Source: an uncultured Actinomycetes bacterium
GTDB taxonomy: Bacteria > Actinomycetota > UBA4738 > HRBIN12
DNA length: 64,000 nt
Reading direction: 5' to 3'
NCBI GenBank assembly: GCA_963704885.1
Contig: CAVPIB010000004.1
Span: 800,001-864,000 of the forward strand
The translations under genes were made by a program, and so were the position numbers. Below are positions 28,793 through 64,000 of this stretch, piece after piece (position 1 is the first letter of the stretch; each line of letters begins with the position of its first letter). The notes under the pieces were generated by a model. It searched no databases. It saw only the letters and a program-made list of their open reading frames with translations, and was not told the origin of the DNA.

Positions 28793-30070
28793 TCAGGCGG
28801 CGCCGTTGCCCACCCTGGCGTACAGCCGGTAGGTGGTGAACCCCGAGGCGGACCCCGCGTAGGACACGATCCGGGTCTGGGCGTCGACCCAGACGACCGA
28901 GCCCCCCTCGTTGATCCGCTGGTCGGCGGCCGTAGCGCCACGGATGACCGATGGGACCGACCACGCGCCGCCGGACGACTGGCTCCACAAGACCTGGACG
29001 CGCGTCAGACCGGAGCCGGTGTCACAGGAGGCCGAGCGGCACCCGCTCCACACGACCCCCATCGCCCCGGTGGCCCCGATCGCGACCTGGGCGTCGTACC
29101 CGCCGGAGGCGAGACCGGATCCGTTCCCGAAGCGCACCACGCGCTTAGCCGGCTGGAACGATCCGTTCCAGGGGCGGACCCAGAGCCCGGCAGACGTGGT
29201 CCACGCGAACGCGAGCCTGCTCCCGCGTCCGTCGACCGAGGGCGAGCCGCCGTTGGCACCACCACCGGCCGGAGCGAGCGTCGTCACGCGTCGCCACTTG
29301 CGTCCGCCGTTCGTGGAGACCGCCGCGCGAACGGCGCCTGCGGGCGTGGCCAGCCAGACCACACCGATGTTCGAGCCCGCGGCACCGACGCTCGTGAGTC
29401 CCAGACGGCCCTCGCCGCCCGTGTCCAGTCCGCGCGCCTTGCCCAGGACGTGGCGCTTCCACGTCTTGCCGTCGTCCCGGCTCACCGCCAGGCGGACCTC
29501 GCCCGTGTTGGCGTCGGTCCACGAGACGTATACCCGTCCCGCGGAGGCGGCCACCGACGGGGAGTCGACCCGGCCCTTCTGCTTGCTGAGCCGCACGACG
29601 GGACCCCAGGCGCCGGCAGCGCCGGCGCCGTCGTTGACTCGGAGATACAGGATCCTGCGCCCCGACGGGTTCTGGTGGTCGTAGCTCGCGCGCGTCGTCC
29701 ACACGGCGTAGAGGATGCTGCGATCGGCGGCGAGCGCAGCGCGCTCGGCGTGCCGCTTCGGTTGGCTGACCCGGACCGGCGAGCCCCAGTTGATGCCCCG
29801 ATCCTGCGAGGAGGTCAGGAACACTCCTTCATAAGGACCGTGGTCCGTGGCGAACGATCCGCCGACGTGGTCAGTGGTGATGAGTTGGTGAACGGCCAGG
29901 CCGGGACCGGATCCGGTCGCCGCGAGCGACGAGCCCGAGCTCCAGGCCCAGTCGGCCAGGGTGCGCTGGGGCCCCCAGGCGACCGCGGCGGACGCCGAAG
30001 GGACCGACCAGAGTGTGACGACGAGAGCCGTCGTCGACACGGCCGACAGGAAGCGGGAGAGAGCACGCAT
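28793..30070 (-). CDS. Secreted BNR/Asp-box (sialidase-like) beta-propeller protein
   Basis: Signal ending ASA; Asp-boxes SQDRGINW, SRDDGKTW and STNGGRKW. Confidence 0.75.
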   Translation of the reverse strand: MRALSRFLSAVSTTALVVTLWSVPSASAAVAWGPQRTLADWAWSSGSSLAATGSGPGLAVHQLITTDHVGGSFATDHGPYEGVFLTSSQDRGINWGSPVRVSQPKRHAERAALAADRSILYAVWTTRASYDHQNPSGRRILYLRVNDGAGAAGAWGPVVRLSKQKGRVDSPSVAASAGRVYVSWTDANTGEVRLAVSRDDGKTWKRHVLGKARGLDTGGEGRLGLTSVGAAGSNIGVVWLATPAGAVRAAVSTNGGRKWRRVTTLAPAGGGANGGSPSVDGRGSRLAFAWTTSAGLWVRPWNGSFQPAKRVVRFGNGSGLASGGYDAQVAIGATGAMGVVWSGCRSASCDTGSGLTRVQVLWSQSSGGAWSVPSVIRGATAADQRINEGGSVVWVDAQTRIVSYAGSASGFTTYRLYARVGNGAA

Positions 30071-30112
30071 GGTTCGGCCACCTTACCGGCCCGACAGATA
30101 GGCTCGGTTCCG

Positions 30113-31423
30113 ATGTCGGATCACAACCCCCCGCCCGAAGCCGGCGAGCCTTCGATCTCCCGGCGGACGTTCCTCGGCGGGTCACTCGTCCTGGCAGGGG
30201 GCGCCGTGGCGATCGCGGGAGACCAGGCAGCCGCCGAGTCGGGGCCGAAGGCGGAGGCCGCGTGCTCGACGGTCGACGAACGAGGCCTGCGGGTGGCCGT
30301 CCTCACCACCGCCCCTGCCCGCGTCCGCGTCGAGGCGTGGCCCTCTGGCGCCCCGAGAGACGTCGTTCGCAGCCGGTGGCGGCACACCAACGCCGCGGAT
30401 GTGGCCAAGGTCCGCTTGCCGGGCACCGATACCCCCGGGCGCGCATGGAGATGGCGAGCGATCGTGACGGCTCCTGGAGGTGGGCGCGAGGTCACCGACA
30501 GGACCCGTCGGATCCCCCGACGCCCTGCCCCCGGCGAGGCATCTGCATTCACCTTCGCGTTCGGGTCATGCATCCTTCAGAAGCACGCCATCCCGGCCCT
30601 ACGCGTCGCGCTGGAAGCTGAGCCGCAGTTCTTCGCGATGCTCGGCGACCTGGGGTACCAGGACGACCCGGAGCTACACCCCTACGCACAGACCTACGAT
30701 CGATACGCGGAGCTGTTCCGACGGATACTTCGCAGGCGGGACGTGGCTCGACTGCTGGCGGTCACTCCGATCTACGCGGTGCAGGATGACCACGACTACG
30801 GGCAGGACAACGCGTGGCGCGACACCGTCAAGTCCTATGCGGCACAGGCGTACGCGGACGTGATACCAGGAGCGAAGTGGCCGGGCGCCAACTACCGCCG
30901 TTGGTCGATCGGTCAGGTGGACTTCTTCCTTACGGACAACCGTCGCTTCAGGGACCCACCGAACCCGCCGTATCAGAACGGCTCCTACCGCAGTGTTCTA
31001 GGCACGGAGCAACGAACATGGCTGATGGATGGCCTTGCGTCGTCCACGGCACCTCTGAAGGTCGTGTTCATCCCGATGACGATGACATGGTACTGGTCCA
31101 AAGGGGAACGAACCGCAGTCTTGGATTCCATCGCCGACCGGGTCGATGGCACGGTGCTGTTCTGTTCCGGCGACAAGCACGCCGGAGCTTTCGTTCGTCA
31201 CACCGAGCGGGTCTGGGAACTCCTCGCCTCCCCGCTCCAGAACCCCACGAAGCACCGGACACCCGCGAGGCCGGGGGTGGTCTGGACGGAGAACGGTACG
31301 GGACGCGCGCTTTGGAACGTGGTCGGATTGGTGGATGTGGACACCCTCACAGCGCAGACGGCCACGCTCCGACTCGTCCGTGAAGACGGCGAGGAGTTGC
31401 ACAGAGAGATCCTGCAGCTCTAA
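30113..31423 (+). CDS. Tat-exported PhoD-like metallophosphoesterase
   Basis: SRRTFLGG Tat motif; FAFGSC, LGD..Y.D, DDHDY, D.RRFR, LG.EQ..WL and SGDKH. Confidence 0.85.
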   Translation: MSDHNPPPEAGEPSISRRTFLGGSLVLAGGAVAIAGDQAAAESGPKAEAACSTVDERGLRVAVLTTAPARVRVEAWPSGAPRDVVRSRWRHTNAADVAKVRLPGTDTPGRAWRWRAIVTAPGGGREVTDRTRRIPRRPAPGEASAFTFAFGSCILQKHAIPALRVALEAEPQFFAMLGDLGYQDDPELHPYAQTYDRYAELFRRILRRRDVARLLAVTPIYAVQDDHDYGQDNAWRDTVKSYAAQAYADVIPGAKWPGANYRRWSIGQVDFFLTDNRRFRDPPNPPYQNGSYRSVLGTEQRTWLMDGLASSTAPLKVVFIPMTMTWYWSKGERTAVLDSIADRVDGTVLFCSGDKHAGAFVRHTERVWELLASPLQNPTKHRTPARPGVVWTENGTGRALWNVVGLVDVDTLTAQTATLRLVREDGEELHREILQL

Positions 31424-31695
31424 CCGCGCGGGGTGCGGACGAGCAGCGCTTTCGGTCGGGGTGACGCAAGAGCGGGAACGTGTCGATGACTCGGTAGGCG
31501 ACGCTGAGGGTAGATCCACACGGCGGTCACACCGATGCCCATCTGCAAAGCGAACCACCATGTGAGGTACGACATCACGCCTTGAGTCACCAGGGGCACG
31601 AACGCGAGCAGGTACACAAGAGCCAGAACTCCGGCCGCCCACCTTCTGCGTTCCGATCGGGTTCGAGGATCGCTCACTAGATCCACCCACCTCAT
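31420..31695 (-). CDS. Small hypothetical membrane protein
   Basis: Two hydrophobic segments; fills the gap between phoD and the first GT gene. Confidence 0.45.
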   Translation of the reverse strand: MRWVDLVSDPRTRSERRRWAAGVLALVYLLAFVPLVTQGVMSYLTWWFALQMGIGVTAVWIYPQRRLPSHRHVPALASPRPKALLVRTPRG

Positions 31696-31787
31696 CTCAG
31701 GCCGAAACGTGAACTCCAACAGCCTAGACCGGCAAACCCCTCCGGGTCCCGGAAGCTGCCGGACTTGTTGCTATACCCTCGGAGACC

Positions 31788-33029
31788 GTGAGGATCCTCC
31801 ATGTGAACAAGTTCCTGTATCGGCGGGGTGGCGCCGAGGGCTACATGTTGGACGTCGCCTCACTCCAGGAGCGAGCGGGGCACGAGGTGGCGTTCTTCGC
31901 CATGCGGCACCCCGAGAACCTGGAGGCGCGCTATGAACGATGGTTCCCGTCGCAGATGGACTTCGACCCGGCACCTTCCGAACTGGGAGGGCGCCTCCGC
32001 GGCTCTGGACGGCTCCTGTGGTCAACATCTGCCGCCCGGGGGATGAACGAGGTGCTTGCCGACTTCCGCCCGGACGTCGTGCACCTTCACAACATCTACC
32101 ACCAGCTCTCCCCGTCGATCCTGCAGCCCGTCAGGCGACGGCGGATCCCGGCCGTCATGACGCTTCACGACTACAAGCTCGCGTGCCCCACGTATCGGTT
32201 CATCGATCACGGCGAGATCTGCGAGGCGTGCCTCCCCCACCGGTTCTGGGAACCGATCGCTCGGCGCTGCAACGGCGGATCGTTGGCGGCGAGCGCGCTC
32301 AACGCCGTCGAGATGACCCTCCACACGTTCGGACGGGCCTACGGACCGGTGCAGATCTTCGCGTGCCCCAGCCGTTTCCTGCTGGGCAAGATGGAAGCGG
32401 GCCGAGTCTTCCCGGACCGCCTGCGGTGGATCCCGAACTTCGTGGATCTGGACGCGTTCACTCCGAAGCAGGAACCTGGCGGTGACGTTGTCTTCGCGGG
32501 GAGACTCTCCGATGAGAAGGGCGTGGACGTCCTGGTCGAGGCCGTGGCAGGCCGTTCGGATCTCCGTCTGGACGTTGCGGGTGACGGCCCGGCACGCCCA
32601 CGGCTCGAGACGCTCGCCGCGGAGCGTGGCGCCGCCGACCGGATCCGGTTCCACGGGCGGCTTGCTGCGGATGCGCTCCAAGACCTGCTCCGATCGGCGA
32701 GCGTCGCGGTAGTCCCCTCACGCTGGTACGAGAACATGCCGCTCGCCGTGCTCGAGGCGTTCGCATCCGGGCTACCTGTCGTGGGGACGGCTCTCGGAGG
32801 CGTGCCCGAGCTGATCGAGCCGGGTGTCGACGGCGCGATCGTGGCTCCGAACGACCCAGCGGCTCTGGGTGAGACGCTCGCTGCATTCGTGGGCGAGCCG
32901 GAACGATCGATGACCCTGGGTCGGAACGCACGTGCCAAGGCCGAGCGCGAATACTCCCCGGCCGTGCACATGGAGCGGCTGGACGCGCTTTACGCGGAGG
33001 CCGCCACGCGATTGCAGGGCGTGGCATGA
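31788..33029 (+). CDS. GT4 family glycosyltransferase with Cys-rich insert
   Basis: NKFLYRRGGAE, PDVVHLHNIYHQLSPS, TLHDYKLACP, GRLS.EKG and PS.WYENMP..VLEA. Confidence 0.92.
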   Translation: MRILHVNKFLYRRGGAEGYMLDVASLQERAGHEVAFFAMRHPENLEARYERWFPSQMDFDPAPSELGGRLRGSGRLLWSTSAARGMNEVLADFRPDVVHLHNIYHQLSPSILQPVRRRRIPAVMTLHDYKLACPTYRFIDHGEICEACLPHRFWEPIARRCNGGSLAASALNAVEMTLHTFGRAYGPVQIFACPSRFLLGKMEAGRVFPDRLRWIPNFVDLDAFTPKQEPGGDVVFAGRLSDEKGVDVLVEAVAGRSDLRLDVAGDGPARPRLETLAAERGAADRIRFHGRLAADALQDLLRSASVAVVPSRWYENMPLAVLEAFASGLPVVGTALGGVPELIEPGVDGAIVAPNDPAALGETLAAFVGEPERSMTLGRNARAKAEREYSPAVHMERLDALYAEAATRLQGVA

Positions 33030-34156
33030 AGCGTCTGCGGATCGCCATGGTGGGCCAGCGAGGCGTCCCGGCGACCTTCGGCGGGATCGAGCACCACGTG
33101 GAGGAGTTGGGCTCCCGACTGGTCGAGCGGGGTCACGACGTGGTGGTCTACGCCCGCCCCAATTATCTGGAAGAGCCGATCCAGGAGCATCGGGGGATGC
33201 GGATCAAGGTGCTCCCAACGGTCAGCAGCAAGCACCTGGACGCCATCGTTCACAGCGGCGTTTCCACCGTGGCAGCGATGCGAGAGCGTGTGGACATCGT
33301 CCACTACCACGCGATCGGACCGGGCATCCCTGCGGTCTTGCCCAGGTTCGCGTCGCGGGCCAAGGTGGTCCTCACGGTGCACGGACGCGATAGCGAACGC
33401 GGGAAGTGGGGCGGCGGCGCCCGAACCGTGCTGCGGACCGCCGAGTGGATGTCCGCGAGGGTTCCCGACGCCACGATCGTGGTCTCGCGCGACCTGCAGA
33501 ACCACTACGCCGACGCCTACCGGCGCCGTACCTGGTACATCCCCAACGGGGTCGATCCGGGCGAGCCACTGGCCGCGAATGAGATCGCGAAGCGGTGGGG
33601 ACTCTCCAAAGGCTCCTACGTGTTGTTCGTGGGACGGCTTGTCCCCGAGAAGGCGCCGGACCTGCTGATCCGCGCGTTCCGACGTTTGCCGGGCGACCTA
33701 CGGCTGGTGATCGTGGGCGGCTCGAGCTTCACGGACGACTACGTCACATCGCTCGAGACGCTCGCGTCGCAGGACAACCGGGTGATCATGGCGGGATACG
33801 TGTATGGAGCCGTCCTCTCCGAGCTCTACTCCAACACCGCCGCCTTCGTGCTGCCGTCCGCGCTGGAGGGGCTGCCGCTCACCCTCCTCGAAGCCTCGTC
33901 GTTCGGGGCTCCGGTCGTGGTGAGCGACATCCCTCCGCACCTGGAGGTCGTGGGTGAGGACGCCCCAGGACATAGGGTGTTCACGAGCGGATCTGAAGAC
34001 GGGGCCGTTGCCGCGCTAGAGCGAGCGCTGGTTGATCCAGCCGTCGAAAGGGAGGCTGCGGCGGCCTTCCGAGCGGACGTGCTGGAGCGCTATCGCTGGG
34101 ATCGAGCGGTCGAGCGAACCGAGGAGGTCTACGCGTCGATCCTGCGACGCGGCTAG
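33026..34156 (+). CDS. GT4 family glycosyltransferase
   Basis: IAMVGQRGVPATFGGIE, FVGRLVPEK, LPS.LEGLP..LLEA and SDIP; ATGA overlap with the upstream GT. Confidence 0.92.
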   Translation: MKRLRIAMVGQRGVPATFGGIEHHVEELGSRLVERGHDVVVYARPNYLEEPIQEHRGMRIKVLPTVSSKHLDAIVHSGVSTVAAMRERVDIVHYHAIGPGIPAVLPRFASRAKVVLTVHGRDSERGKWGGGARTVLRTAEWMSARVPDATIVVSRDLQNHYADAYRRRTWYIPNGVDPGEPLAANEIAKRWGLSKGSYVLFVGRLVPEKAPDLLIRAFRRLPGDLRLVIVGGSSFTDDYVTSLETLASQDNRVIMAGYVYGAVLSELYSNTAAFVLPSALEGLPLTLLEASSFGAPVVVSDIPPHLEVVGEDAPGHRVFTSGSEDGAVAALERALVDPAVEREAAAAFRADVLERYRWDRAVERTEEVYASILRRG

Positions 34157-34160
34157 CGAG

Positions 34161-35405
34161 TCAGTCGTGTATCAGGATCGAAGCCCTGTGCGCGCCCAGG
34201 ACGACCGGCGCCGCGCGACGAAGGCCGGACCCACGGAGCGCGCTCAGTCCGACCCGGATGCGAGCAGCCGTCGGGTTCACTACCACTACCCCGTTCTCGA
34301 ACCGCCGGACGAACGCGCCACGGACGCGATGGGCGCGACCGAGCGGGTCCCCTAGATCGACCGACCAGAGGGGCCGAAACGAGGTCAGCCCGTGACCGAC
34401 CCGGAACGAGAAGTAGCCCTGGCCGGGCTGATAGCCCAGGAGGAACGTTCCCAGCGCGTACCGGTGTAGGGCCGTGCGTTGGCGCGACGAGGCCTCCGTC
34501 CACACCTTCGTCATGGAGAGGGCCCGCACACCGTGCTTCGCGACATCGGTGAGCATGCGAACGTCCTCCCGCCACTCCCAACGACCGCGGAAATCCTCGG
34601 CAGGAGCCGTCGGGTCACGGACGAAAGTCTCCGCCATGGCACCGTCCAAACCGTCAAGTAGGGAAGACGAAGGAACGTCGGCGAAGTATCGATCGCCGTT
34701 GGCGAGCCCGTTGCCGAATACGGCGGCTGGCGAGACCAGCCTGCGTGTCACGTTGGCGATCCGCCGGGTCGCGGAGAGCCAGGCAGCAGCGGTCCATGTG
34801 CCTCCCGTTCGAGGATCGACAGGCAGCGCCGTCACGTAGGCATCGCTCAACGGTGCAGTCCCCAACACGTCTAGGAAGCATCCGTCGTAGCCGCTCTCAC
34901 TCATGAAGGCGTCGCAGCGCCGGGCCACGTCGGCGATCCAGCCGGATCGATCCGGTCGCATCAGGTAGTTGCCGAACCCCAAGGACCGAACGCGGTCGCC
35001 GTTCGCGTCGGTCGCATACCAGGAGTCAGGGTAGGTGTCTCCCTCGTTCGACTGGGCCATGACCCCGTTCAGATACACAAGGAGGGTGAGGTCGGGGTTC
35101 GCGGCCTTCATGTCGGCCACGTACTTCGCATATGTCCCCTTGAGCGCCACGATGAGGTCGAAATCCCGAGCCTGGCGGAGTGCCCGCTCGCGAGAAACGT
35201 CGACGACGCCCGCCATGAAATCCGCGGCCCACACCGGGATGTGCTCGGGGTCGGCCGGCTGGTTAGAAGGAGCGGAGGCCGAACGGGTCGCTGAAGCTTC
35301 GTCAAGGTGCCCGCCGCCCGCGTGCGCGGGGATGGCTGATACCGAGATCGTCGCGATGAACGCGACGATCGAGGCTAGAACGTTCCTGGTCGTCCGGTTG
35401 GCCAC
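34161..35405 (-). CDS. Secreted putative glycoside hydrolase (GHL15/PF14885-like)
   Basis: Signal ending AHA; YDGCFLD, GNG, DGAMAE.F, YALGTFLLG, DLG.P.G and RRFENGVVVVNPT. Confidence 0.72.
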   Translation of the reverse strand: MANRTTRNVLASIVAFIATISVSAIPAHAGGGHLDEASATRSASAPSNQPADPEHIPVWAADFMAGVVDVSRERALRQARDFDLIVALKGTYAKYVADMKAANPDLTLLVYLNGVMAQSNEGDTYPDSWYATDANGDRVRSLGFGNYLMRPDRSGWIADVARRCDAFMSESGYDGCFLDVLGTAPLSDAYVTALPVDPRTGGTWTAAAWLSATRRIANVTRRLVSPAAVFGNGLANGDRYFADVPSSSLLDGLDGAMAETFVRDPTAPAEDFRGRWEWREDVRMLTDVAKHGVRALSMTKVWTEASSRQRTALHRYALGTFLLGYQPGQGYFSFRVGHGLTSFRPLWSVDLGDPLGRAHRVRGAFVRRFENGVVVVNPTAARIRVGLSALRGSGLRRAAPVVLGAHRASILIHD

Positions 35406-35540: not shown

Positions 35541-36482
35541 GTGAGCGCGAAGGTCCTCTACATCGCCGGCTCCGGCCGGAGCGGTAGCACCATCCTCGAC
35601 AACATCCTGGGACAGCTCGAGGGCTTCGTTTCCGCAGGTGAGGTGCGCTTCTTGTGGGAGCGGGGGATGCGGGAGGATCGCACCTGTTCGTGCGGAACGG
35701 CGTTCTCGTCGTGCTCCTTCTGGGGCGAGGTGCTCACGACGGCGTACGGCGACCGTGCAACGCCGGACCCGGAACGGATGATGGCCCTCCTGGCCCGAGG
35801 GACGCGGGCTAGGCACATCCCCCGGCTCGTCGGTTCGGCCCGTCGGCGAGAAGCGTTCGTAGGAGGGCTCGACGAGCTCCCCGACCGGCTCTCGTCGCTG
35901 TACGGAGCTATCGCCGATGCCGCCGGGGCCCGCGTCATCGTGGACTCGTCCAAGCTCCCCACATACGGGATGGTCTTGGATCAGGTCCCCGGCGTCGACC
36001 TGCGGATCGTGCACCTGGTGCGCGACCCACGCGCGACCGCATACTCGTGGCGCCGCAAGAAGTCGCTGCCAGACAAGCCTGGCAGCACTATGCAACGACA
36101 AGGTCCGCTGAAGGCCTCGGCACTCTGGATGCTCTGGAACGGAGCAGCGGGTGTGTTCTGGCGCAAGGACCGCGAGCGGTATCTACGGCTGCGCTACGAG
36201 GACTTCGTGCGGGATCCGAGATCGAGCATCGAGCGGGTCTGCGCATTCGTGGGCGAGGACCCAAGCGGGTCACCCTTCGTGTCGGAGACCGAGGTGGAGC
36301 TGACCCCGTCGCACTCGGTCGCGGGGAACCCGAGCCGGTTCACCACGGGACGCGTAGCGCTTTGGCCCGATGACGAGTGGCGAACCGCGATGCGCCCGAG
36401 AGACCGCGCGATAGTCACAGCCGTAACGTGGCCGCTGCTGTGGCGGTACGGGTACGTCGCGGGGACGCGCGGTGATGGTTAG
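35541..36482 (+). CDS. PAPS-dependent sulfotransferase (Sulfotransfer_3-like)
   Basis: 5'-PSB loop YIAGSGRSGSTIL, CSCG...C.FW, VDSSK, HLVRDPRA.AYS and LRYEDF..DP. Confidence 0.92.
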   Translation: MSAKVLYIAGSGRSGSTILDNILGQLEGFVSAGEVRFLWERGMREDRTCSCGTAFSSCSFWGEVLTTAYGDRATPDPERMMALLARGTRARHIPRLVGSARRREAFVGGLDELPDRLSSLYGAIADAAGARVIVDSSKLPTYGMVLDQVPGVDLRIVHLVRDPRATAYSWRRKKSLPDKPGSTMQRQGPLKASALWMLWNGAAGVFWRKDRERYLRLRYEDFVRDPRSSIERVCAFVGEDPSGSPFVSETEVELTPSHSVAGNPSRFTTGRVALWPDDEWRTAMRPRDRAIVTAVTWPLLWRYGYVAGTRGDG

Positions 36483-39442: not shown

Positions 39443-39568
39443 GCCTGACACGCCCGATCGACGGTCCCGGAAGGAGACATCGTGGATTTGGGACCGATCT
39501 GCCCATCGAGCGTAAACGGTCCCCCTTCGGTCGACCATCGGCCGATAGGCTAAACCGTAGGACCTAGG

Positions 39569-41158: not shown

Positions 41159-41248
41159 TGGGATCGCCTTCGGATCGGGTTCCGGGTCAGCCTACGGTCT
41201 GGACTTGGCTACGTGTCGCAAGGCTGGAGTGCGTTCGACCTGACAACA

Positions 41249-41276
41249 CGGAAGCGGGCCCGAAGGCCCGCTTCCG
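41249..41276 (-). terminator. Intrinsic terminator after NHL-B
   Basis: cggaagcgggcc-cgaa-ggcccgcttccg. Confidence 0.75.
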
Positions 41277-41298
41277 TTCTCGCCCTCGCCTTCGAGGC

Positions 41299-45069: not shown

Positions 45070-45519
45070 CTAGCTGGCCACGACAGCGAACTCTTGGACC
45101 CGCTCGCCATTCATCTCGACTACGTACAGCGAAGTTCCCAACGGGGACAGGTCCATGCCCCACGGGAAGTTGAACCGTCCCAAAGTCATCCCCGGGCCAC
45201 CGAAGGCCCGACGAACGTCCCATCCTTCCTCCAGAGGGCGGCCCGACCGGTGCCGGCGATCGTGCGAACGGGCGAGGGGACGCGAACGCCGCATCCGCGG
45301 GACCGGCAGGAAGCGTGAGTAGCGGTAGCGGGCTCGAGAGCCCGACGAGCGCTCGCGCTACGCCTCTGCGGATGGATCTGGATATCTTCATTCCCGGCAG
45401 GCCCCACCGACGGTCCCGGAGGGAGGAAGGCAACGCGAACTGGGACCGATCTGCTATCGAGCGTATCCGGTCCTCATCCGGACAACAATCGGCCGATGGG
45501 CTAGACCTTAAGACTTAGG
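45070..45519 (-). pseudogene. Chimeric remnant: 5' end and promoter of NHL-A fused to the 3' end of NHL-D
   Basis: 45070..45234 matches 49385..49551 and 45232..45519 matches 39283..39568; the junction has an aga microhomology. Confidence 0.88.
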
Positions 45520-45788
45520 TCATGCCTCTTCGGTGGAGGAACGCAGCCTCCGAAGATAGGGCGACCGTAGGCCGACCCGACCGCAGCGAACACCCCGAGA
45601 CCAACTAGTCCAAGGAGGCCGGCTTCAAGCAAGAACGGCCGGCGCCGTAGGTCGCTGCGATCGCGACATCGAGGACGAGCCCGGAGAGGACCGATGCCGC
45701 AGCCGCGACGCTCGTCGTGCCGGACTGGCGGATCACGTCGCGCGTGGTGCGCTTGGGCCTGGGCGCCTCGGGATCGCTCTCGCTCAGT
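45520..45788 (-). pseudogene. Internally deleted murJ remnant
   Basis: 45520..45638 matches the murJ 3' end (39569..39690) and 45639..45870 matches the murJ 5' end and leader (41009..41240); about 1.3 kb is missing. Confidence 0.9.
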
Positions 45789-45878
45789 GGGATCGCCTTC
45801 GGATCGGGTTCCGGGTCAGCCTACGGTCTGGACTTGGCTACGTGTCGCAAGGCCGGGGTGCGTTCGACCTGGGAACGG

Positions 45879-49362: not shown

Positions 49363-49384
49363 CTTATCCTCCTTCTGATGCCAG

Positions 49385-53822: not shown

Positions 53823-54158
53823 GGTCGAGTCTGACCTTGATCCTGACCTGACGCGAGCGATCGTAACCTGATCTTCTTCTGGGACGCCGGTCGAGGGTGT
53901 CCGTAGCTCCCGCTGATGCGCCGACACATGTCAAGGGCCGCATGGCGAAGAACCACTCACCCGAGAGGGTGACACCCGCCGTGGGCCCCGTTCGTCACCG
54001 AATCAGCCGACCGACCGATACAGGAGGGGCGCCCACCAAGCCGACGTAGCCAGTACGGAATCGAACCGTGATGCCGGAACCCACCGAGGGGGCGGAGTCG
54101 CACACACGTGCCACCGTCCTGCACCCACGGAGGTCTGGTCAGGGGGAGGTACGCACTG

Positions 54159-57100: not shown

Positions 57101-57589
57101 GGAGCCACTTCAACATCCTGGTCGTACAACTGGGCGCCTCAGACCCCAGGATCATTCATCCTGGTCATCAAGGCGAAGGACAGTGCGGGGAACCTTGATC
57201 CCTCCCCCGCCGGTTCATCCTTCAAGGTGGGCTCCGATAAGCTCGCGGCGCGAGCGCGGGTGGCAACCAGGAACGTTCGCGCCCGGCCCAACGCTCGACC
57301 CGGTCGGAACGTCCTCCTGCGCGGGTCGGCGTTCGACAACCAGGCGGTCGGCGCGGTGTTGGTCGCCATCAAGAGCAAGGCCACCGGCCGCTACTGGCAC
57401 CCGGGCGGCAAGTGGGGGCGCCAGCACTACTACCGCTCGAGGCTGGGCACGCCGGGAGCCCGCTCGTCGAACTGGCGGTTCCGCGTGCAGCTTCGCCCCG
57501 GACGCTATCGATTGCAGCTTGCTTCGATCGACTCCTCGGGCAACCTGTACATCAGGTGGATCAGGATCCGCGTACGCTATCACCGCTGA
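54159..57589 (+). CDS. Secreted GHL15-like hydrolase + alpha/beta hydrolase + 2 Ig-like domains (one indel in a G-run near 54238)
   Basis: Signal MRTKRSIGTALAIF... lies in another frame from ATG 54159 (RBS ggggagg). Paralogous to 51647..53822, then GTSMGG / HGTAD.TVP / GVGH triad motifs between Pro-Ser linkers. Confidence 0.78.
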
Positions 57590-57670: not shown

Positions 57671-60600
57671 TTAGGTAACCGTGAAGACCCTCCAGATGGT
57701 GTTCGCGCCCAGGTTCCCGGCCGCATCCAACGCTCGCGCCTGGAAGCCATAGCCACCGGTCCCCGGTGGGTTGAAGATGTATGTCCAACCCGTGTTGACG
57801 CCGCCGGGCGTATCCAGAACGGCCGTCACGAAGGTGAAGGCTCCCCACCCCGATCCGTTCCACCACTGGCCGGTGGCAGCGTTCCTGATCGAGACGCGAA
57901 CCACCGTGACGCCGACCTCGTCGGAGGCGGTGCCGCTCACCGTGATCGGCGCCGGCCCCGACGAGTTGTTCAATGGCGTGCTGACGAGGGTCACAGGTGC
58001 CGACGTGTCGACGAACGGCGGCTGGATCGTGAAGCTCCGCGGCGCGGTGCTCGTGCCGAGGTTGCCGATCGAATCGACACCGCGGACCTGTACCGCGTAG
58101 CTGCCCGCGGCCGCGGGGTTGAACGTGTATGCGTAGCCCGTACTCGTGCCGCCCGGGTCGTCGAGCGTCGCGGTAACGAACGTGGTGCCGGTAACCCAGC
58201 CCGATCCGTTCCACCACTGCAGACTGTTGCTGTCCTGGATCGACACCCTCACGGCGGCGACCCCTGAGGGGTCTGAGGACGTCCCGCTCACGCCGACCGA
58301 GCCGAAAGGCAGAGACTGGCCGCTCGAGGGTGTGATCAGAGCGATCGTCGGCCCGGTCGTGTCTCCGCCGGGAGCCGTGATGTTGAAGTTCCTCCAGGTC
58401 GTGTTGCCGCCGACGTTCCCGCTGGTGTCCACCGACTTCACTTGGATCCCGAAGTTGCCTGCTATCCCGGGGTCGAACGGATAACTCCAGTTCACGGCGA
58501 CGCCGCCGGGATCGTCCAACGTGGCCACGACGTATGAACCACCGGCCCCCCAACCGGTGCCGGTCCACCATTGCAGGGTGGCGTTGTTGCGGATGGCCAC
58601 GCGGACCGCGGCCACCCCCGAGTTGTCGGTTGCGGATCCGCTGATGCCGATCGGTGCCGGTCCTGATGAACCGTTGACCGGTGAGGAGATGGTCGTGTCG
58701 GGCAAGGTCGTGTCCACAGGAAGAACCGTGAATGCACGGGACGCAGGTGACGTGTCGACGTTGGTCGCGGCGTCGGTCGCTCTGGCGAACGCCGTATAAC
58801 CGCCCGAGGCTGGCGAGTGCCAGGCGTATGACCAACCCGTCGAGGGAGCACCCGGAGAGAAGAGCGTAGTGCCGAGCCACTGCTGCGAACCGGTCCAGGC
58901 CGACCCACTCCACCACTGGCCGGTTCCGTCGTCGCGGATCGATACGGCGACCGACACGACGCCGACGTTGTCGGTCGCGTCTCCCGCTATCCCCACCGTG
59001 CCCGCCGGCACGGACTGCCCCGAGGTCGGCGCCGTGATAGAGGTATCGGGCGAAACCGCATCGCTGACACCTGCCACCGTGAACCGCGTGAAGGGGGCAT
59101 CGGTTTCGACGTTCCCGGCAGCATCCAGCGCCCTCGACGTAACGAAGTAAGAGCCACTGCCTGCGGCTCCACCGAAGAAGCTGTAGCTCCAGGTCGTCTC
59201 GAGCGCCCCCGGAGTGACCACGGTGCCCGGGATCCAGATCTGGGATCCGTTGACGAACGTCCCCGTGCCCGGGTTGAACCAGCGGTTCGTGTTCCGATCC
59301 TTGATCGAGACCTGAGCTTGCGTGATGCCGACGTTGTCGCCCGCGGTCCCCTGGAATGTGACCGGGCCTACCGGCACCGTGGCGTCGATGGGCGGCGCGG
59401 TGATCGAAGTGACCGGCGGAAGCTTGTCGCCGGGTGACCCAGCGGTCGAGAAGTCGACGACCGGGATCGTCGCCGATGCGATCGACGAGATGTCGGTACC
59501 CCGCACCTCAGCGTGGTAATGCCTGTCGTAATCCGCGCCATTGAACGCGAACGAATAGGTCATGCTCGTGATCGAGGCGCCGGAAACAGGCGCCTGGTTC
59601 CATCTCTGCGCGGAGCCCCAAGTGGCGGTCCTGGAATCCCACCAGAGGTTCGTGTCGGTGTCCTTCACGGATACCTCGACCTGCGCGACGCCGAACGGCG
59701 CCGAATCCGTCGCCGAGCCCGAGATCCGAAGGCCACTCGCCGCGATGGTGGCACCGTTCGTAGGCGACGAGATCGTCACGACTGGTTTCTTGTTGTCGCC
59801 CGTCGGCTTAGGCACGGTGGTGGAGTAGACCTGGATGCGGTCGTTGGCCGAGTCGGCTACGTACAGGTTGCCCACAGCATCGTGAGTGATACCGGCCGGA
59901 TTGCTGAATTGGTAGGGACCAGTTCCGTAACCCCCCCACTTCCCCAAGTAGGCCCCGTTCAGGTCGAACGCCTGGATCCGCGAGAGTTGCGTGTCGGTGA
60001 TGTAGACGACCCCGTTCACTATGGTGATGCCCCAAGGGTTCTGAAACTGGCCGTTTCCGGACCCTGTGCTTCCCCACGTCCGGATCGTCGTCCCGAGGTT
60101 GGGTGACAGCACAGTTACCTTGTCGCTGGACCATGAGACCACGTACACGTTGCCGGTGGACGGATCGACGGCGACACCGTTGTTGCTCAGGCTCTTCTGA
60201 TTGATCTCGACACCGGTGTCTGCGTTCAGACGTTTGACCACTCCCGAGTTGTAGTCGCCGATGTACGCAAACCCTCCGTAGAAGTCTGCATCAACCGGCC
60301 ACCGGAAGTACCCCGCGGCAGAGGAGTCGTTCGTCTCCGACCCGAGCGTGTCAACGTAGCTTGCGTCGGCGTTGAACCGGCGGATGTTGTGCGCACGGGT
60401 GTTCGTCACCCAGAGCCGGTTGAGGTCCTGGTCGAACCCGATACCGCGCGGATAGTCGAAACCGTACGGAGCGAGCGAGTTGCGTTTGCCGTACGACGCC
60501 TCGACCGATCCATCTGGCAGGAAGACCTGGAAGCGCTGCGCCCAGGTATCAGCGACGTAGACCTTGCCTGTGTCGTTGTCGACGGCGACGCCACGCGGCT

Positions 60601-61687
60601 GGGAGAGCGAACCAACGGGCGCGCCGGCAGCCGGGTCGGGATATATGCCCTTCAGCGTGCCGTTCGGCGTGAACCGTTGGAACCGGAAGTTGCCGTAGTC
60701 GGCGTCCCAAACGTCGCCGTCGGGCCCAACCGTGAGTTGGCGGCCGCCGTCTGCGAACTGGCCCGGCCCCGAGCCGTTGGAGCCCCAGTTCTTGAGCGGC
60801 GTACCGGTGAGCGTGAACTTCTCCACCTGCCCGGCGTCCGAGTCGTTCACGTAGAGCCAGCCGTTGACCTCGTCGACCGCGACACCGCGAAGGTCGCTCG
60901 AGAATTGCCCGACCGCGTCCCCGGGGCCTCCGATATCGCGGATCCACGTGGGCGTCGAAGTGCCGGCCGTCGCGTAGACGTGGACCTCTTTGTTCGTAGA
61001 GTCGTTGATATAGAGGTTGTCGCTTGCGTCCATCGCGATGCCGTACCCGATCCCCATCGCCCCGTTGTTGCTCCCCCACGTACCGAAGCTCCGGCAGGCG
61101 TAGGTACCGGAGGTTGCCTTGAGGCAACCCGATGTGCTGCCGGTAGGCGAGAACTGGCGGATCTTGGGCGGCGTAGACGAGTTGTTCCAGTAATGAGCGT
61201 CCTGTACCCAGATGTTGCCGTACGAGTCGACCGTCAGCCACACGTGATAGTGGTTGCCGCTCGTGAACCCGGACAGTGAGATCCTGGCGAGGAAGACCCC
61301 CGTCTTGTCGTAGCGGGCCACCACCCCTCGCGCGCCGCCGTCCGCGAGCTCGGGCACCAGGATGTCACCGTTTCTGGGATCGACCGCTAGCGAGTATGGC
61401 TGTCCATCCGGGTTGGGTCGATAGAACGACCCCAGCAGGTTCCCGTTCATGTCGTATCGACGGATCTGGAAGTTCAGGTAGTCCCCGACCACGATCTCGT
61501 TGCTCACGGGGTTGTATTGGATCCCCCAGGCGAACACAGCAGGCTCGCCATTGCCGCTTATCGACCTCATGATCGAGGGAGGAGACCATGCGGCTTCCGC
61601 AGGGGCGGCGGAGGCGACCGTCAACGCGACCGACGACACGCAAAGGGCCAGGGCGCCGACGAAGAGACGGGGGAGGCGAGCGTGCAT
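57671..61687 (-). CDS. Secreted NHL-repeat double beta-propeller + 6 Ig-like domains (NHL-E)
   Basis: Signal ending AEA; VFAWGIQYNP..NEI.VGDYLNFQ; NHL repeats; six Ig-like modules. Confidence 0.87.
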   Translation of the reverse strand: MHARLPRLFVGALALCVSSVALTVASAAPAEAAWSPPSIMRSISGNGEPAVFAWGIQYNPVSNEIVVGDYLNFQIRRYDMNGNLLGSFYRPNPDGQPYSLAVDPRNGDILVPELADGGARGVVARYDKTGVFLARISLSGFTSGNHYHVWLTVDSYGNIWVQDAHYWNNSSTPPKIRQFSPTGSTSGCLKATSGTYACRSFGTWGSNNGAMGIGYGIAMDASDNLYINDSTNKEVHVYATAGTSTPTWIRDIGGPGDAVGQFSSDLRGVAVDEVNGWLYVNDSDAGQVEKFTLTGTPLKNWGSNGSGPGQFADGGRQLTVGPDGDVWDADYGNFRFQRFTPNGTLKGIYPDPAAGAPVGSLSQPRGVAVDNDTGKVYVADTWAQRFQVFLPDGSVEASYGKRNSLAPYGFDYPRGIGFDQDLNRLWVTNTRAHNIRRFNADASYVDTLGSETNDSSAAGYFRWPVDADFYGGFAYIGDYNSGVVKRLNADTGVEINQKSLSNNGVAVDPSTGNVYVVSWSSDKVTVLSPNLGTTIRTWGSTGSGNGQFQNPWGITIVNGVVYITDTQLSRIQAFDLNGAYLGKWGGYGTGPYQFSNPAGITHDAVGNLYVADSANDRIQVYSTTVPKPTGDNKKPVVTISSPTNGATIAASGLRISGSATDSAPFGVAQVEVSVKDTDTNLWWDSRTATWGSAQRWNQAPVSGASITSMTYSFAFNGADYDRHYHAEVRGTDISSIASATIPVVDFSTAGSPGDKLPPVTSITAPPIDATVPVGPVTFQGTAGDNVGITQAQVSIKDRNTNRWFNPGTGTFVNGSQIWIPGTVVTPGALETTWSYSFFGGAAGSGSYFVTSRALDAAGNVETDAPFTRFTVAGVSDAVSPDTSITAPTSGQSVPAGTVGIAGDATDNVGVVSVAVSIRDDGTGQWWSGSAWTGSQQWLGTTLFSPGAPSTGWSYAWHSPASGGYTAFARATDAATNVDTSPASRAFTVLPVDTTLPDTTISSPVNGSSGPAPIGISGSATDNSGVAAVRVAIRNNATLQWWTGTGWGAGGSYVVATLDDPGGVAVNWSYPFDPGIAGNFGIQVKSVDTSGNVGGNTTWRNFNITAPGGDTTGPTIALITPSSGQSLPFGSVGVSGTSSDPSGVAAVRVSIQDSNSLQWWNGSGWVTGTTFVTATLDDPGGTSTGYAYTFNPAAAGSYAVQVRGVDSIGNLGTSTAPRSFTIQPPFVDTSAPVTLVSTPLNNSSGPAPITVSGTASDEVGVTVVRVSIRNAATGQWWNGSGWGAFTFVTAVLDTPGGVNTGWTYIFNPPGTGGYGFQARALDAAGNLGANTIWRVFTVT

Positions 61688-61695
61688 GATCTTCC

Positions 61696-64000
61696 TCAGG
61701 TCACCGTGAAGTTCACGAACGGGTTGGTCGTGAAGTTGCCTGCCGCGTCATCTGCGCGGACCATCAGGCCGTAGCTGGCGGCGGTCGCCACGAACCCGGA
61801 ACTCCACGATGTGGATGGTGCACCCGGCGAACCCATGGTGGCATCGCTGGCCCACGTGAATGTCGACTGCCACGTCGCGCCGTTCCACCACTGGTTCGTC
61901 GTCTTGTTCTTGATCGCGACACGCACCCTGGTGACACCGACGTTGTCCGTGGCGTTCCCGGACAAGTTGATCATGCCCGCCGGGAAGCCCTGGTTGTTCG
62001 TCGGCACCGTCGTGGTCGGCACCGGAGCTTGGGTGTCAGAGGTCGTCGACGTGACGGTGAAGTTCACGAACGAGTTGGTCGTGAAGTTGCCCGCGGCATC
62101 ATCTGCGCGAACCATCAGGCCGTAGCTGGCGGCGGTCGCCACGAACCCGGAACTCCACGATGTGGATGGTGCACCCGGCGAACCCATGGTGGCATCGCTG
62201 GCCCACGTGAATGTCGACTGCCACGTCGCGCCGTTCCACCACTGGTTCGTCGTCTTGTTCTTGATCGCGACACGCACCCTGGTGACACCGACGTTGTCCG
62301 TGGCGTTCCCGGACAAGTTGATCATGCCCGCCGGGAAGCCCTGGTTGTTCGTCGGCACCGTCGTGGTCGGCACCGGAGCTTGGGTGTCAGGTGCGCTCGC
62401 GGTAACGCTGAACTGGATCCACGGGCGCGTTGGATCTTCATTCCCGACGGCATCTTTCGTCACGACGCTTACGGCGAAGTTACCGACGACGGGGGTCCAC
62501 GTTGCCGTCCAGTTCACCGCCGTCGAACCAGGGACATCCAGTGTCGCCATCTGCCGGTAGACCTTCGACCCCCAAGTGCCGTCGGACTGCAGCCACAGGC
62601 CGCTGTCGCGGTTCTTGATCCCTACTTCGACCGACGCGACGCCGCTCTGGTCGTCGATCGCCGTGCCTGCGATGGTGCCGATCGAACCCACCACATAAAC
62701 ACCGTTCTGGATAGGCAGTGTCACGGAAGCGTCGGGCGCACCCGTGTCCGGCGGCGCGGGCGGCGTTTGCATGACGCTCCAGAACGTCACGCTGTTGTGG
62801 AGGTGATCGGAGACGGCCAGCGTTTGTCCGTCGGGTGATAGAGCGACGCCCTTGGGGGCATCTAGCGCGCCCGCACCGAAAGCCGCGATCGGAGTACCGG
62901 AGGTACCGAATATCTGCACGCGGTCGTTACCCGTATCCGCGACGAACAGGACTTCGGCGTCGTTCACGACGCCGAAGGAGATGTTGTGCGGGTCCTTCAG
63001 CAGCCCCGGCCCGGTCCCCTTGTTAACGATCGTGCCGATAAGGGTGCCTGTGTCGTCGTACTTCGTGATCGAGTCCGCCGCTCCGTCGTTCGCCACGAAG
63101 ACGTCACCGGCGGAATCGATCGCGATGCCGCGCGGCTGGCTGACGCCGTTCGTTACGGTCTTGAGGACGATCCCCGCGGCATCGAAGTGGAGCAGCCGGT
63201 TGTTGTCCGTGTCGGCGACCCAGTAGGTGCCGTTCGCGGCGATCGCCGTCTCGTGCGGCCGACCTAGTCCGGTCGAGAGCGGAGCGATCGCGTTGATGAA
63301 GGAGCCGCTCGGGTTGAACAACGAGAGTCTGTTGTTCTCGCTGTCGGTGACGACGATCGTGCCGTCGGTAGCCACCGTGACCGCCCGTGGGAACGTCAAG
63401 CCTCCAGCGACCGGGCCATAGGTGCCCCACTGGGTGGCGAAACTGCGGTTGGCGTTGAACTTCTCGATCCGGTGGTTGAACCAGTCCGCCACGTACAACT
63501 CACCGCCGGGCCCGTAAGTGAGGCCGAACGGTCCGTTGAAGCCGCCCGCCGCTGGCGGCGTACCGCCGATCGTCTCGGCGTAGACCGGGGCACCCGATCC
63601 GTCCACCGTGAAGCGCTCGAGTTGGAAGGACCACTGATCGCCCACGACGACACTGCCGTTGGCGAGGAAGATGCCGGACTGCTGACGGAACTGGCTCGGG
63701 CCGGTGCCGTAACCAGCGCTCGTTGCCGCGATCAGGGATCCGTTGTTCTGCACGTGGACCAGGAGGTAGTTCTTCGCGTCGCCGATCCAGAGACCTCCGC
63801 TGCCATCGGACGCGATGGCGCGAGGCCGATCGATCGCGAAGCTGCCGATCCCGGCACCGGTGGTCTTGTTGATCGAGACCACGCGGTCGTTGTCAGTGTC
63901 GCCGGCGTACAGGTTGCCGTCGCTGCCGATGGTCACGGTTCTCGGCCGGGATAGCGGGGTGCCGCCCACCGACGTCGTCGACCAGATCTCGGCATCGGTG
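61696..64000 (-). CDS. NHL-repeat protein + 3 Ig-like domains (NHL-F), 5' end beyond the window
   Basis: NHL repeats (YVADWFNHRIEKF, WVADTDNNRL); the frame is open to the window edge; stops 8 bp before the NHL-E start. Confidence 0.85.
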   Translation of the reverse strand, partial: TDAEIWSTTSVGGTPLSRPRTVTIGSDGNLYAGDTDNDRVVSINKTTGAGIGSFAIDRPRAIASDGSGGLWIGDAKNYLLVHVQNNGSLIAATSAGYGTGPSQFRQQSGIFLANGSVVVGDQWSFQLERFTVDGSGAPVYAETIGGTPPAAGGFNGPFGLTYGPGGELYVADWFNHRIEKFNANRSFATQWGTYGPVAGGLTFPRAVTVATDGTIVVTDSENNRLSLFNPSGSFINAIAPLSTGLGRPHETAIAANGTYWVADTDNNRLLHFDAAGIVLKTVTNGVSQPRGIAIDSAGDVFVANDGAADSITKYDDTGTLIGTIVNKGTGPGLLKDPHNISFGVVNDAEVLFVADTGNDRVQIFGTSGTPIAAFGAGALDAPKGVALSPDGQTLAVSDHLHNSVTFWSVMQTPPAPPDTGAPDASVTLPIQNGVYVVGSIGTIAGTAIDDQSGVASVEVGIKNRDSGLWLQSDGTWGSKVYRQMATLDVPGSTAVNWTATWTPVVGNFAVSVVTKDAVGNEDPTRPWIQFSVTASAPDTQAPVPTTTVPTNNQGFPAGMINLSGNATDNVGVTRVRVAIKNKTTNQWWNGATWQSTFTWASDATMGSPGAPSTSWSSGFVATAASYGLMVRADDAAGNFTTNSFVNFTVTSTTSDTQAPVPTTTVPTNNQGFPAGMINLSGNATDNVGVTRVRVAIKNKTTNQWWNGATWQSTFTWASDATMGSPGAPSTSWSSGFVATAASYGLMVRADDAAGNFTTNPFVNFTVT
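61707..62390. repeat. 351-bp tandem intragenic duplication (last two Ig-like domains of NHL-F)
   Basis: 61707..62039 is nearly identical to 62058..62390. Confidence 0.92.

Follow-up and report, generated by a model that had tools for sequence, protein, structure and literature searches.

A recurrent actinobacterial gene cluster predicted to couple sulfated-glycan synthesis to arrays of NHL/Ig propeller proteins and GHL15-type proteins

Genetically defined sulfated polysaccharides are few in bacteria. The cluster for one of them, synechan, reportedly combines sulfotransferases with glycosyltransferases and a regulator, and its product is said to be a sulfated extracellular glycan; we know of no NHL/Ig arrays or GHL15-family proteins there. 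According to the accessible part of its description, the sulfotransferases of this xss cluster of Synechocystis sp. PCC 6803 lie inside a Wzx/Wzy-type cluster (PMC8205485). The second close system is wps-1 of Actinoplanes missouriensis, which carries two sulfotransferases, Wzx, Wzy and Wzz candidates and a GH26 enzyme, and whose product is predicted, not yet shown, to be a sulfated polysaccharide; the available text of the same paper states that sulfated bacterial polysaccharides are still reported from cyanobacteria only (PMC13390465, 2026). Here we describe a locus in the 3.0-Mb, 20-contig genome of an uncultured Actinomycetes bacterium, in a 64,000-nucleotide stretch of contig CAVPIB010000004.1 (C4:800001-864000, the window), in which sulfotransferase, glycosyltransferase and flippase genes are interleaved with genes for secreted NHL/Ig propeller proteins and GHL15-type proteins.

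We consider it probable that this cluster is a sulfated-glycan synthesis system functionally coupled to its NHL and GHL15 proteins, and we lean, with rather less assurance, towards the fuller view that it is a conserved accessory cluster of Actinomycetota making a sulfated lipid-linked glycan plus the extracellular partner proteins of that glycan. As in synechan xss, so far as the accessible description of the latter goes, sulfotransferases stand with Wzx/Wzy-type glycan genes and glycosyltransferases, and the predicted product is a sulfated extracellular glycan; the synechan host, however, is a diderm cyanobacterium, whilst here the flippase is a MurJ-family paralogue and the locus has no chain-length regulator or export proteins. 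With wps-1 the locus shares its actinobacterial host and the presence of sulfotransferases, Wzx/Wzy candidates and a glycoside hydrolase in one cluster, but wps-1 has GT2 and GT26 enzymes (GT4 here), GH26 (GHL15 here) and a Polysacc_synt-type Wzx with Wzz. It is linked to sporangium formation, and the available text of the paper contains neither 'NHL' nor 'propeller' (PMC13390465). Given this predicted sulfated exopolysaccharide cluster, the statement in a first-pass annotation of the window that such systems are little described in actinobacteria needs updating. Sulfotransferases in Wzx/Wzy clusters were already known from synechan and predicted for wps-1, going by the portions of the two reports available, and what is new here is the arrays of NHL/Ig and GHL15 proteins with a MurJ-type flippase. 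In the literature, searched apart from supplements, we found no paper on tandem NHL/Ig and GHL15 arrays tied to a sulfated-glycan pathway with a MurJ-type flippase, none combining sulfotransferase, exopolysaccharide and NHL repeat, and none for Tetrasphaera with sulfotransferase.

The genes of the locus are listed below in window numbering, which is carried on past 64000 as extended coordinates; L labels denote loci or contigs and G labels genomes. Genes were called from an open reading frame (ORF) listing and third-position GC (GC3), and families were assigned with Pfam; all large ORFs have a strong third-position GC bias. Family memberships, model folds, paralogy and the conserved gene linkage are direct observations.

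31788-33029, plus strand: GT4a, glycosyltransferase (Glycos_transf_1, 126.8 bits)
33026-34156, plus strand: GT4b, glycosyltransferase (Glycos_transf_1, 97.2 bits), its start overlapping the end of GT4a by 4 bases
34161-35405, minus strand: GHL15, secreted TIM-barrel protein, putative glycoside hydrolase (PF14885, 54.8 bits, cut-off 27)
35541-36482, plus strand: ST1, sulfotransferase of the 3'-phosphoadenosine-5'-phosphosulfate (PAPS) type (Sulfotransfer_3, 55.8 bits; Sulfotransfer_1, 39.1 bits)
36479-39538, minus strand: NHL1, with signal peptide, tandem propeller pair and Ig (Big_7-like) domains (NHL, 91.3 bits; Big_7, 45.4 bits)
39569-40987, frame open to 41191, minus strand: MurJ-family (MOP) flippase, second copy (PF03023, 179.6 bits)
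41299-45048, minus strand: NHL2, 1249 amino acids (NHL, 67.2 bits; Big_7, 73.4 bits)
45073-45820, minus strand: duplication remnants, copied from the NHL4 3' end (45073-45219) and from the murJ 5' end (45632-45820)
45931-49425, minus strand: NHL3, 1164 amino acids (NHL, 76.3 bits; Big_7, 62 bits)
49385-51202, minus strand: NHL4, 605 amino acids, signal peptide and bare tandem propeller pair, without Ig domains
51647-53822, plus strand: GHLa, GHL15-like paralogue A with one Ig domain, frame break at about 52118-52121
54068-57589, plus strand: GHLb, GHL15-like paralogue B, with N-domain and TIM barrel, Pro/Ser linker, alpha/beta-hydrolase-like domain and two Ig domains
57671-61687, minus strand: NHL5, 1338 amino acids (NHL, 95.8 bits; Big_7, 101.5 bits)
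61696-64000, minus strand: NHL6, C-terminal 767 amino acids in the window; the whole open frame has 2144 amino acids and reaches extended 68130
Extended 69127-68208, same strand as NHL6 and upstream of it: STb, sulfotransferase, frame-broken
Extended 70055-69166, same strand as NHL6 and upstream of it: STa, sulfotransferase, frame-broken
Extended 70094-70825, same strand as NHL6: PGT, small Bac_transf priming transferase (Bac_transf, 226.7 bits)
Extended 71013-71942, same strand as NHL6: ST3, sulfotransferase (Sulfotransfer_3, 31.5 bits)

Two co-directional runs with short gaps are formed by ST3, PGT, STa, STb, NHL6 and NHL5, and by NHL4, NHL3, NHL2, murJ and NHL1. The first-pass calls of two GT4s, a Sulfotransfer_3 enzyme, a MurJ-family flippase and a PhoD-like protein were all confirmed by Pfam.

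The NHL genes and the glycan genes recur together in other genomes. A profile of NHL4 homologues led to 32 loci in 26 other species-representative genomes, belonging to Acidimicrobiia and other Actinomycetota metagenome-assembled genomes (MAGs), three Nostocoides, three Nocardioides, an Intrasporangiaceae MAG and one Armatimonadetes contig, and the 10-kb flanks of each were searched by tblastn with the locus proteins together with Wzy and other proteins from related loci, counting matches of at least 80 bits. Within this distance of an NHL gene we found a sulfotransferase in 18 of the 32 loci, a locus-type MurJ in 15, Wzy in 8, GT4 in 7, GHL15 in 5, the GHLb type in 4 and PGT in 4; at least one of sulfotransferase, MurJ-type flippase, Wzy and PGT was present in 19/32 loci and 19/26 genomes. 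Pfam searches of five related loci placed Wzy_C beside MurJ in L034, L044 and L032, and found up to five sulfotransferases, GHL15-RTX fusions, PD40-RTX propellers and an NTP_transf_5 protein.

Searching in the reverse direction gave the same partners. The MurJ subtype of the locus (E ≤ 1e-40) is rare, with 8 carriers, the present genome among them, in 251 sampled genomes of the class; three of these were loci already seen, a fourth was G018, and the three new ones all had ST3, PGT, STa, STb and NHL genes within 10 kb, one of them also with both GT4s and Wzy. A linkage of NHL/Ig genes to glycan genes, one of the two tests on which the first-pass proposal had been made to depend, is seen in 19/26 genomes and in 3/3 genomes picked by flippase. 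In a comparison with 60 close relatives, strong matches to NHL, the MurJ type and ST3 come together in G018, where short contigs read PGT...ST3-STa-STb-NHL and MurJ-GHL15-PhoD-NHL, and the same-genus genome G012 has ST3-PGT-STa-STb on a 5.9-kb contig ending there; G041 has a 40%-identical ST3-like gene only, with no other locus gene in the region. The tallies of this 61-genome search include G049, G041 and G034, which are flagged as unpublished, and no specific claim rests on those three. The block PGT-STa-STb-NHL is found in one direction in the present genome, G018, L051, L053, L071, L072 and L073, and from its recurrence we read the cluster as an accessory island that has a conserved core and a patchy distribution in relatives.

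The gene content suggests a route for making the glycan, for which we infer the substrates, the sulfation of the glycan, the nature of the product and all roles of the propellers. The Bac_transf phosphoglycosyl transferase would prime undecaprenyl phosphate, the two GT4 enzymes would lengthen the unit, up to four PAPS-type sulfotransferases would sulfate it in the cytoplasm with PAPS made via an adenosine 5'-phosphosulfate (APS) kinase, and the dedicated second MurJ-family flippase would carry it across the membrane. In many related genomes a Wzy_C protein beside the flippase would then polymerise or ligate the unit; none was found in the present genome. Outside the cell, the basic TIM-barrel proteins of the GHL15 family may trim or process the polyanionic product, whilst the acidic tandem-NHL/Ig array may form matrix or lectin-like scaffolds, possibly calcium-bridged with the neighbouring RTX-repeat proteins.

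The first-pass annotation had read the locus as lipid-linked sulfated-glycan synthesis from the window and had pointed to the adjacent DNA as the place to look for a priming transferase. That logic is supported by what lies just past the window: a predicted priming transferase (PGT, 295.4 on TIGR03025, cut-off 295.55) plus three more sulfotransferase genes. From the Wzx/Wzy pathway, the locus therefore has a priming transferase, its own glycosyltransferases (the two GT4s) and a dedicated MOP flippase. Homologues of GT4a with 64-68% identity stand beside Wzy and the MurJ subtype in L073, which also has a 65%-identical copy of GT4b.

The flippase gene is embedded among NHL genes, as had been noted, between NHL1 (36479-39538) and NHL2 (41299-45048). 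Judged by its sequence, it is a second MurJ-family copy and not the housekeeping one: the copy on contig C1 scores 303 bits on the Pfam MurJ model and the locus copy 202 bits, the two are 25% identical, and the locus copy reaches 181.6 on TIGR01695, under the MurJ equivalog cut-off of 235.55 (NCBIfam). As a second copy with a weaker MurJ score, below the equivalog cut-off, it is best read as a dedicated glycan flippase. It is of MurJ type, not Polysacc_synt type, and resembles the MurJ lipid II flippase in Pfam family, with an orthologue alignment that spans its full length; it differs in being sub-equivalog, of a rare subtype, and in travelling with sulfotransferases and NHL genes. A crude hydropathy scan of extended 1-80000 gave murJ as the sole credible polytopic membrane protein, two other flagged frames being taken as spurious because they lie on the antisense strand of RTX genes and their GC3 is low (0.68).

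The locus has four sulfotransferase genes, ST1, ST3, STa and STb. ST1 and ST3 both exceed the Sulfotransfer_3 cut-off of 27 bits and so belong to the PAPS-dependent sulfotransferases, whilst STa and STb were identified through 57-66% identity to intact L053 sulfotransferases. The loops 'GRSGST', near the ST1 N-terminus, and 'QRSGTN' can be read in the sulfotransferase translations, and we take these to be 5'-phosphosulfate-binding loops. An APS kinase on contig C1 (209 bits) points to a PAPS supply for these enzymes; there is no cysNC or cysD near the locus. As to the acceptor of the sulfotransferases, NoeE is matched at E 1.9e-4 only, and the gene context consists consistently of glycan genes. 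ST1 has two paralogues in the genome (41-42% identity), both in a polysaccharide locus on contig C16 (L067:1-20000) with a Polysacc_synt flippase, three sulfotransferases (the two ST1 paralogues among them, and one fused to a Glyco_tran_28_C domain), GT2, Wzz/BY-kinase and Alg13/14-like proteins. In the C16 locus the glycan genes are followed by two secreted DUF5122 beta-propeller proteins, so that sulfotransferase-rich glycan genes stand beside secreted propellers twice in this genome, with different propeller families.

The NHL proteins are six paralogues, as first described, with pairwise identities of 25-63%, the highest being that of NHL2 and NHL3 (63%). All six, including NHL6, which the window cuts, have N-termini in which basic and hydrophobic stretches and an Ala-x-Ala-like segment can be read by eye, in keeping with the Sec signals first noted for five of them. 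An AlphaFold2 model of NHL4 (predicted local distance difference test, pLDDT, 92.4) consists of two tandem six-bladed propellers, which agrees with the double propeller first proposed; with the matches to the repeat model, this fold places the proteins among the NHL-repeat beta-propellers. The double-propeller module, used as a profile, matches once in each of NHL1-5 (residues 40-656 in NHL1), whilst residues 55-1787 of NHL6 are filled by NHL repeats (NHL, 324.6 bits on the part outside the window). The C-terminal Ig domains of the NHL proteins are common to GHLa and GHLb, and neither the NHL proteins, the GHL-like paralogues nor their Ig domains have any other tblastn match (E < 1e-6) in the 3.0-Mb genome. 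Among 8000 database candidates scored, 692 are relatives of the NHL family at E ≤ 0.001. As a side observation, NHL6 residues 1966-1996 and 2083-2113 (about 61790-62240) are an exact 31-residue repeat in successive Ig domains, which points to a very recent internal domain duplication.

The closest folds to the NHL4 model are TRIM-type NHL domains, which are non-enzymatic. Compared with TRIM-type domains (TRIM71, Thin, Lin41, Brat) and with the PknD sensor domain, the propellers here differ in being tandem (NHL6 has about six propellers' worth), secreted, Ig-trailed and encoded in paralogue arrays beside glycan genes. We tentatively see them as non-catalytic binding or scaffold partners of the glycan, and put this at slightly under an even chance. 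Enzymes that modify or cleave the glycan (lyase, lactonase or epimerase-like) seem rather improbable: beta-propeller polysaccharide lyases exist, weak Pfam matches to SGL, Arylesterase, Lactonase, Vgb_lyase and Phytase-like families occur in the NHL proteins, and a paralogue array could serve several linkages, but the Pfam matches span one or two blades only, and the invariant residues of a 22-sequence alignment, read by eye, fall mostly in the repeated D-x-x-N-x-R-[IV]-x-x-[FY]-type blade motif and not in one active-site set.

The first-pass annotation had also supposed that paralogue expansion diversifies the surface. In the single pair tested this finds no support: between NHL2 and NHL3 the Nei-Gojobori synonymous divergence (dS) is 0.81 and the nonsynonymous (dN) 0.27, giving dN/dS of 0.34, and every 100-codon window lies at 0.16-0.50. 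The pair thus shows no sign of diversifying selection; both genes are under purifying selection.

Paralogous families of secreted proteins also occur beside exopolysaccharide loci in Gram-negative bacteria, in the PEP-CTERM/exosortase systems. NHL1 and NHL4 match the ScyF NHL PEP-CTERM model at 191-194 bits (cut-off 350); the present proteins differ in having an Ig domain end and no C-terminal sorting signal, and no exosortase was seen in the locus.

Three GHL15-like proteins had been called in the window. One of them (34161-35405) passes the Pfam cut-off, whilst the other two, GHLa and GHLb, have no PF14885 match even at E ≤ 1. GHLa and GHLb are 68% identical to each other, and the profile of their family aligns with the locus GHL15 protein over 321 columns (hhalign probability 98%, E 1.8e-13); on this profile comparison they are its remote homologues. 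The GHLb family has 37 database proteins, 13 of which carry a precomputed PF14885 match, and one Asp (in WLD/FLD) and one Glu (in LE/AE), lying at beta-strand ends in GHLb, align between the GHLb and GHL15 branches. The available portions of the literature on GHL15/PF14885 give no function. The locus GHL15 protein has a signal-like N-terminus and a calculated isoelectric point (pI) of 9.3; the hydrolase-like proteins are basic, as are the BNR-like and PhoD-like proteins described below (pI 9.1-11.0). In the related loci, two GHL15 genes of L034 are fused to RTX repeats. Between its Pro/Ser linkers GHLb has an alpha/beta-hydrolase-like domain (residues 629-838, 55950-56580) with PETase-like and Chlorophyllase matches below cut-off, and from this likeness the domain could be an esterase acting on the same glycan.

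The TIM barrel of the GHLb model has its closest solved folds in sulfated-fucan endo-hydrolases of family GH168, at 10-13% identity. Against these endo-1,3-fucanases (PDB 9jos, 8ya6, 9f9v), as given in the available part of their description, there is no sequence-level match and the model here is about 190 residues longer (PMC12534559); the context also differs, being biosynthetic here and not degradative. This fold, together with the occurrence of 90-99%-identical short contigs in marine-sediment metagenomes (small shares only), could be taken to mean that the locus serves the breakdown of foreign sulfated polysaccharides, fucoidan for instance, with the biosynthetic genes as unrelated neighbours. 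We regard this as very improbable: no sulfatase, sugar transporter or catabolic regulator is detected by Pfam from 28793 to extended 72742, and the genes that accompany NHL and GHL genes from locus to locus belong to biosynthesis (PGT, GT4, sulfotransferases, flippase and Wzy).

Several observations weigh against coupled sulfated-glycan synthesis at this locus. The NHL propellers are not obligately adjacent to glycan genes, since 10 of the 32 NHL loci have no glycan gene in their 10-kb flanks; several of these ten are second NHL loci of genomes having a linked one, or short contigs. The nearest solved relatives of ST1 are sulfotransferases associated with polyketide synthases or cytosolic (small-molecule) enzymes, the matches being weak (E 8e-10 and 3e-5, partial coverage), whilst ST3 has no solved relative, with a chance-level match only. 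The GH168 likeness of GHLb is one of fold only, the GHLb-family profile having no match in PDB sequences at E ≤ 10. The NHL proteins are acidic (pI 4.5-5.5), which makes their simple charge attraction to a sulfated polyanion unlikely. Neither a Wzy polymerase nor a chain-length regulator was found for the locus: Wzy_C (PF04932) has no match in the genome (97% complete, all but 16 kb of it covered; Wzy families outside PF04932 were not searched), three Wzy proteins of related loci have no tblastn match there, the hydropathy scan of extended 1-80000 gave no Wzy-like polytopic protein besides murJ, and Pfam found no chain-length regulator (Wzz/BY-kinase) or cell-wall ligase in the locus, nor any in the output for the five related loci. 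Amongst relatives, Wzy is present in 8/32 loci, and in L073. Frame breaks affect GHLa, the N-terminus of GHLb, STa (one) and STb (two), those of STa and STb at extended 68420-69400, so that the pathway may be incomplete here, and murJ lacks a canonical start codon before its first helix region. Its frame is open from 41191 and aligns with the orthologue N-terminus and first helix, the first ATG, GTG or TTG coming only at 40987; this could reflect an unusual start codon, loss of the start or an error in the sequence.

These breaks, the murJ start, the missing Wzy_C and the rearrangement remnants between NHL3 and NHL2 would also suit a locus that works elsewhere and is decaying or non-functional in the present genome, which we think unlikely. 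The break in GHLa coincides with a GC3 phase switch, two frames match GHLb on either side of it, and it is a one-base break between residues matching 'ETKAPL' and 'AIGTYW' of GHLb. The probable signal peptide of GHLb, beginning at 54159, is out of frame with the rest of the gene, but a metagenome contig of a related strain has an extra G at 54232, which by frame arithmetic, not translation, would bring this signal peptide into frame with GHLb. That contig belongs to the marine-sediment metagenomes, in which three DNA runs of one study share 5-7% of the sequence words of the locus, on short contigs 90-99% alike, and no RNA run was listed as sharing any; none of the contigs bridges the 52120 break. 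Housekeeping genes in the window are not free of such faults either. The phosphoenolpyruvate (PEP) carboxylase gene (3123-5476) is broken into three parts and shows frame changes as well as an in-frame TAG, so the breaks in the locus may be assembly errors rather than decay. Separately, TypA/BipA (11762-13372) begins at position 87 of its GTPase domain model; together the PEP carboxylase and TypA breaks suggest either frequent assembly indel errors or gene decay. The purifying selection on NHL2 and NHL3 and the strong third-position GC bias kept in all large ORFs also speak against decay.

As for the remnants, NHL2 and NHL3 arose when a stretch of about 4 kb was duplicated in tandem (49551-45633 vs 45235-41004). 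The copy of the NHL4 3' end has an 86% protein match to NHL4 residues 557-605 (DNA 132/146), and that of the murJ 5' end a 95% protein match to residues 1-63 of the murJ frame (DNA 181/189). The remnants are thus 90-96% identical to their sources in DNA (compare 41004-41298 and 49385-49551), yet dS between NHL2 and NHL3 is such that about half of the synonymous positions differ; gene conversion at the ends and replacement of the gene bodies by recombination are both possibilities.

The missing polymerase and chain-length regulator bear on another alternative, protein O-glycosylation of a proteoglycan-like kind, in which an unpolymerised sulfated oligosaccharide would be put on the NHL/Ig proteins, and perhaps on the Pro/Ser linkers of GHLb, by a Wzy_C-family oligosaccharyltransferase, the propellers being acceptors and not binders. 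The Wzy_C family includes O-oligosaccharyltransferases such as PglL. That Wzz/BY-kinase is lacking in the locus and in the Pfam output of the five related loci (C16 has one), that an NHL gene directly follows PGT-STa-STb in the same direction in the present genome, G018 and the five loci named above for this block, that only two GT4s and PGT are present, suggesting a short unit, and that GHLb has long Pro/Ser-rich linkers would all fit. But no Wzy_C-family gene was found in the genome, so this transferase would be lacking too, the NHL proteins have short Pro-rich linkers only and no mucin-like tracts, and secreted endo-hydrolase-like proteins suit a polymer better than a short protein-bound glycan. 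The absence of long Ser/Thr/Pro tracts from the NHL proteins, taken alone, neither supports nor excludes glycosylation. We judge such O-glycosylation to be unlikely, and the propellers as acceptors likewise. A related reading is a bacterial proteoglycan-like matrix, in which the secreted NHL/Ig proteins would carry a self-made sulfated glycan covalently or be assembled on it in stoichiometric amounts, GH168-like hydrolases tailoring it; this too is unlikely.

Around this core lie further genes.

28793-30070, minus strand: BNR/Asp-box-like secreted protein, sub-threshold in Pfam, GC3 frame favouring the minus-strand ORF
About 30101-31423 (start approximate), plus strand: PhoD-like phosphatase/phosphodiesterase with a twin-arginine translocation (TAT)-type signal (PF09423, 58.4 bits)
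16265-17503, minus strand: PD40 propeller plus RTX-repeat protein (PD40, 158.3 bits; HemolysinCabind, 78.8 bits), outside the interval first reported
Beyond the window, in the gene group upstream of NHL6: LuxR-type response regulator

The BNR propeller call of the first-pass annotation falls under the Pfam cut-offs (BNR 25.9 vs 27, BNR_2 23.4 vs 31.4); the protein is very basic (pI 11.0) and its gene has a match in none of the 32 related loci. The PhoD-like gene, with a weak TAT_signal match and a coding frame set by a GC3 switch near 30100, is likewise absent from the 32 other loci, and a 56%-identical copy stands beside GHL15 and an NHL gene in G018 (L064). Between 16265 and 26050 the PD40-RTX protein is accompanied by three large RTX-repeat proteins (894, 921 and 571 amino acids). 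It is 44% identical to a gene of L051 and is also found in L053 and L057; the PD40-RTX protein or RTX modules recur in L051, L053, L034, L052 and L064, so the cluster may extend to about 16 kb in the window.

Adjoining the locus at 26859-28652 is a sigma factor of the extracytoplasmic function (ECF) type fused to a C-terminal extension of about 400 amino acids. It was considered as the cluster regulator and rejected, having no counterpart in related loci, as was the LuxR response regulator, for which the same-genus contig L062 has the only clear counterpart. About 5 kb beyond the locus, L004:13470-16338 (extended 77470-80338) holds a DUF1800/DUF1501 pair, the DUF1501 protein with a TAT signal. 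The clusters of Acidimicrobiia type contain an NTP_transf_5 'uncharacterised nucleotidyltransferase' (L051:987-2507, L053:326-1843, L071 and L072), and several proteins without a Pfam family also recur in the L051, L053, L071 and L072 versions; by tblastn, the NTP_transf_5 protein and these accompanying proteins are absent from the present genome.

Sulfated anionic glycoconjugates are common in the extracellular polymeric substances (EPS) of granular sludge, according to the accessible part of one report (PMC10483923), and we found no paper in the literature tying them to a gene cluster of this kind. Were the proteoglycan-like reading true, the cluster would be a conserved actinobacterial counterpart of the animal sulfated extracellular matrix, and would supply a genetic origin for the sulfated glycoconjugates that have been reported from the EPS of sludge and sediment. 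If the reading we prefer, coupled synthesis of a sulfated glycan, is true, the cluster would provide a gene set for sulfated glycans in Actinomycetota, the first functional context for both the uncharacterised GHL15 family and a large tandem NHL/Ig family, and a MurJ-family paralogue serving something other than lipid II. As cultured strains of Nostocoides and Nocardioides, such as Nostocoides vanveenii JCM 15591, Nostocoides veronense JCM 15592 and Nocardioides sp. SR21, carry the cluster alongside Acidimicrobiia MAGs, the prediction is testable, and the pattern of linkage points to an undescribed kind of bacterial extracellular matrix.

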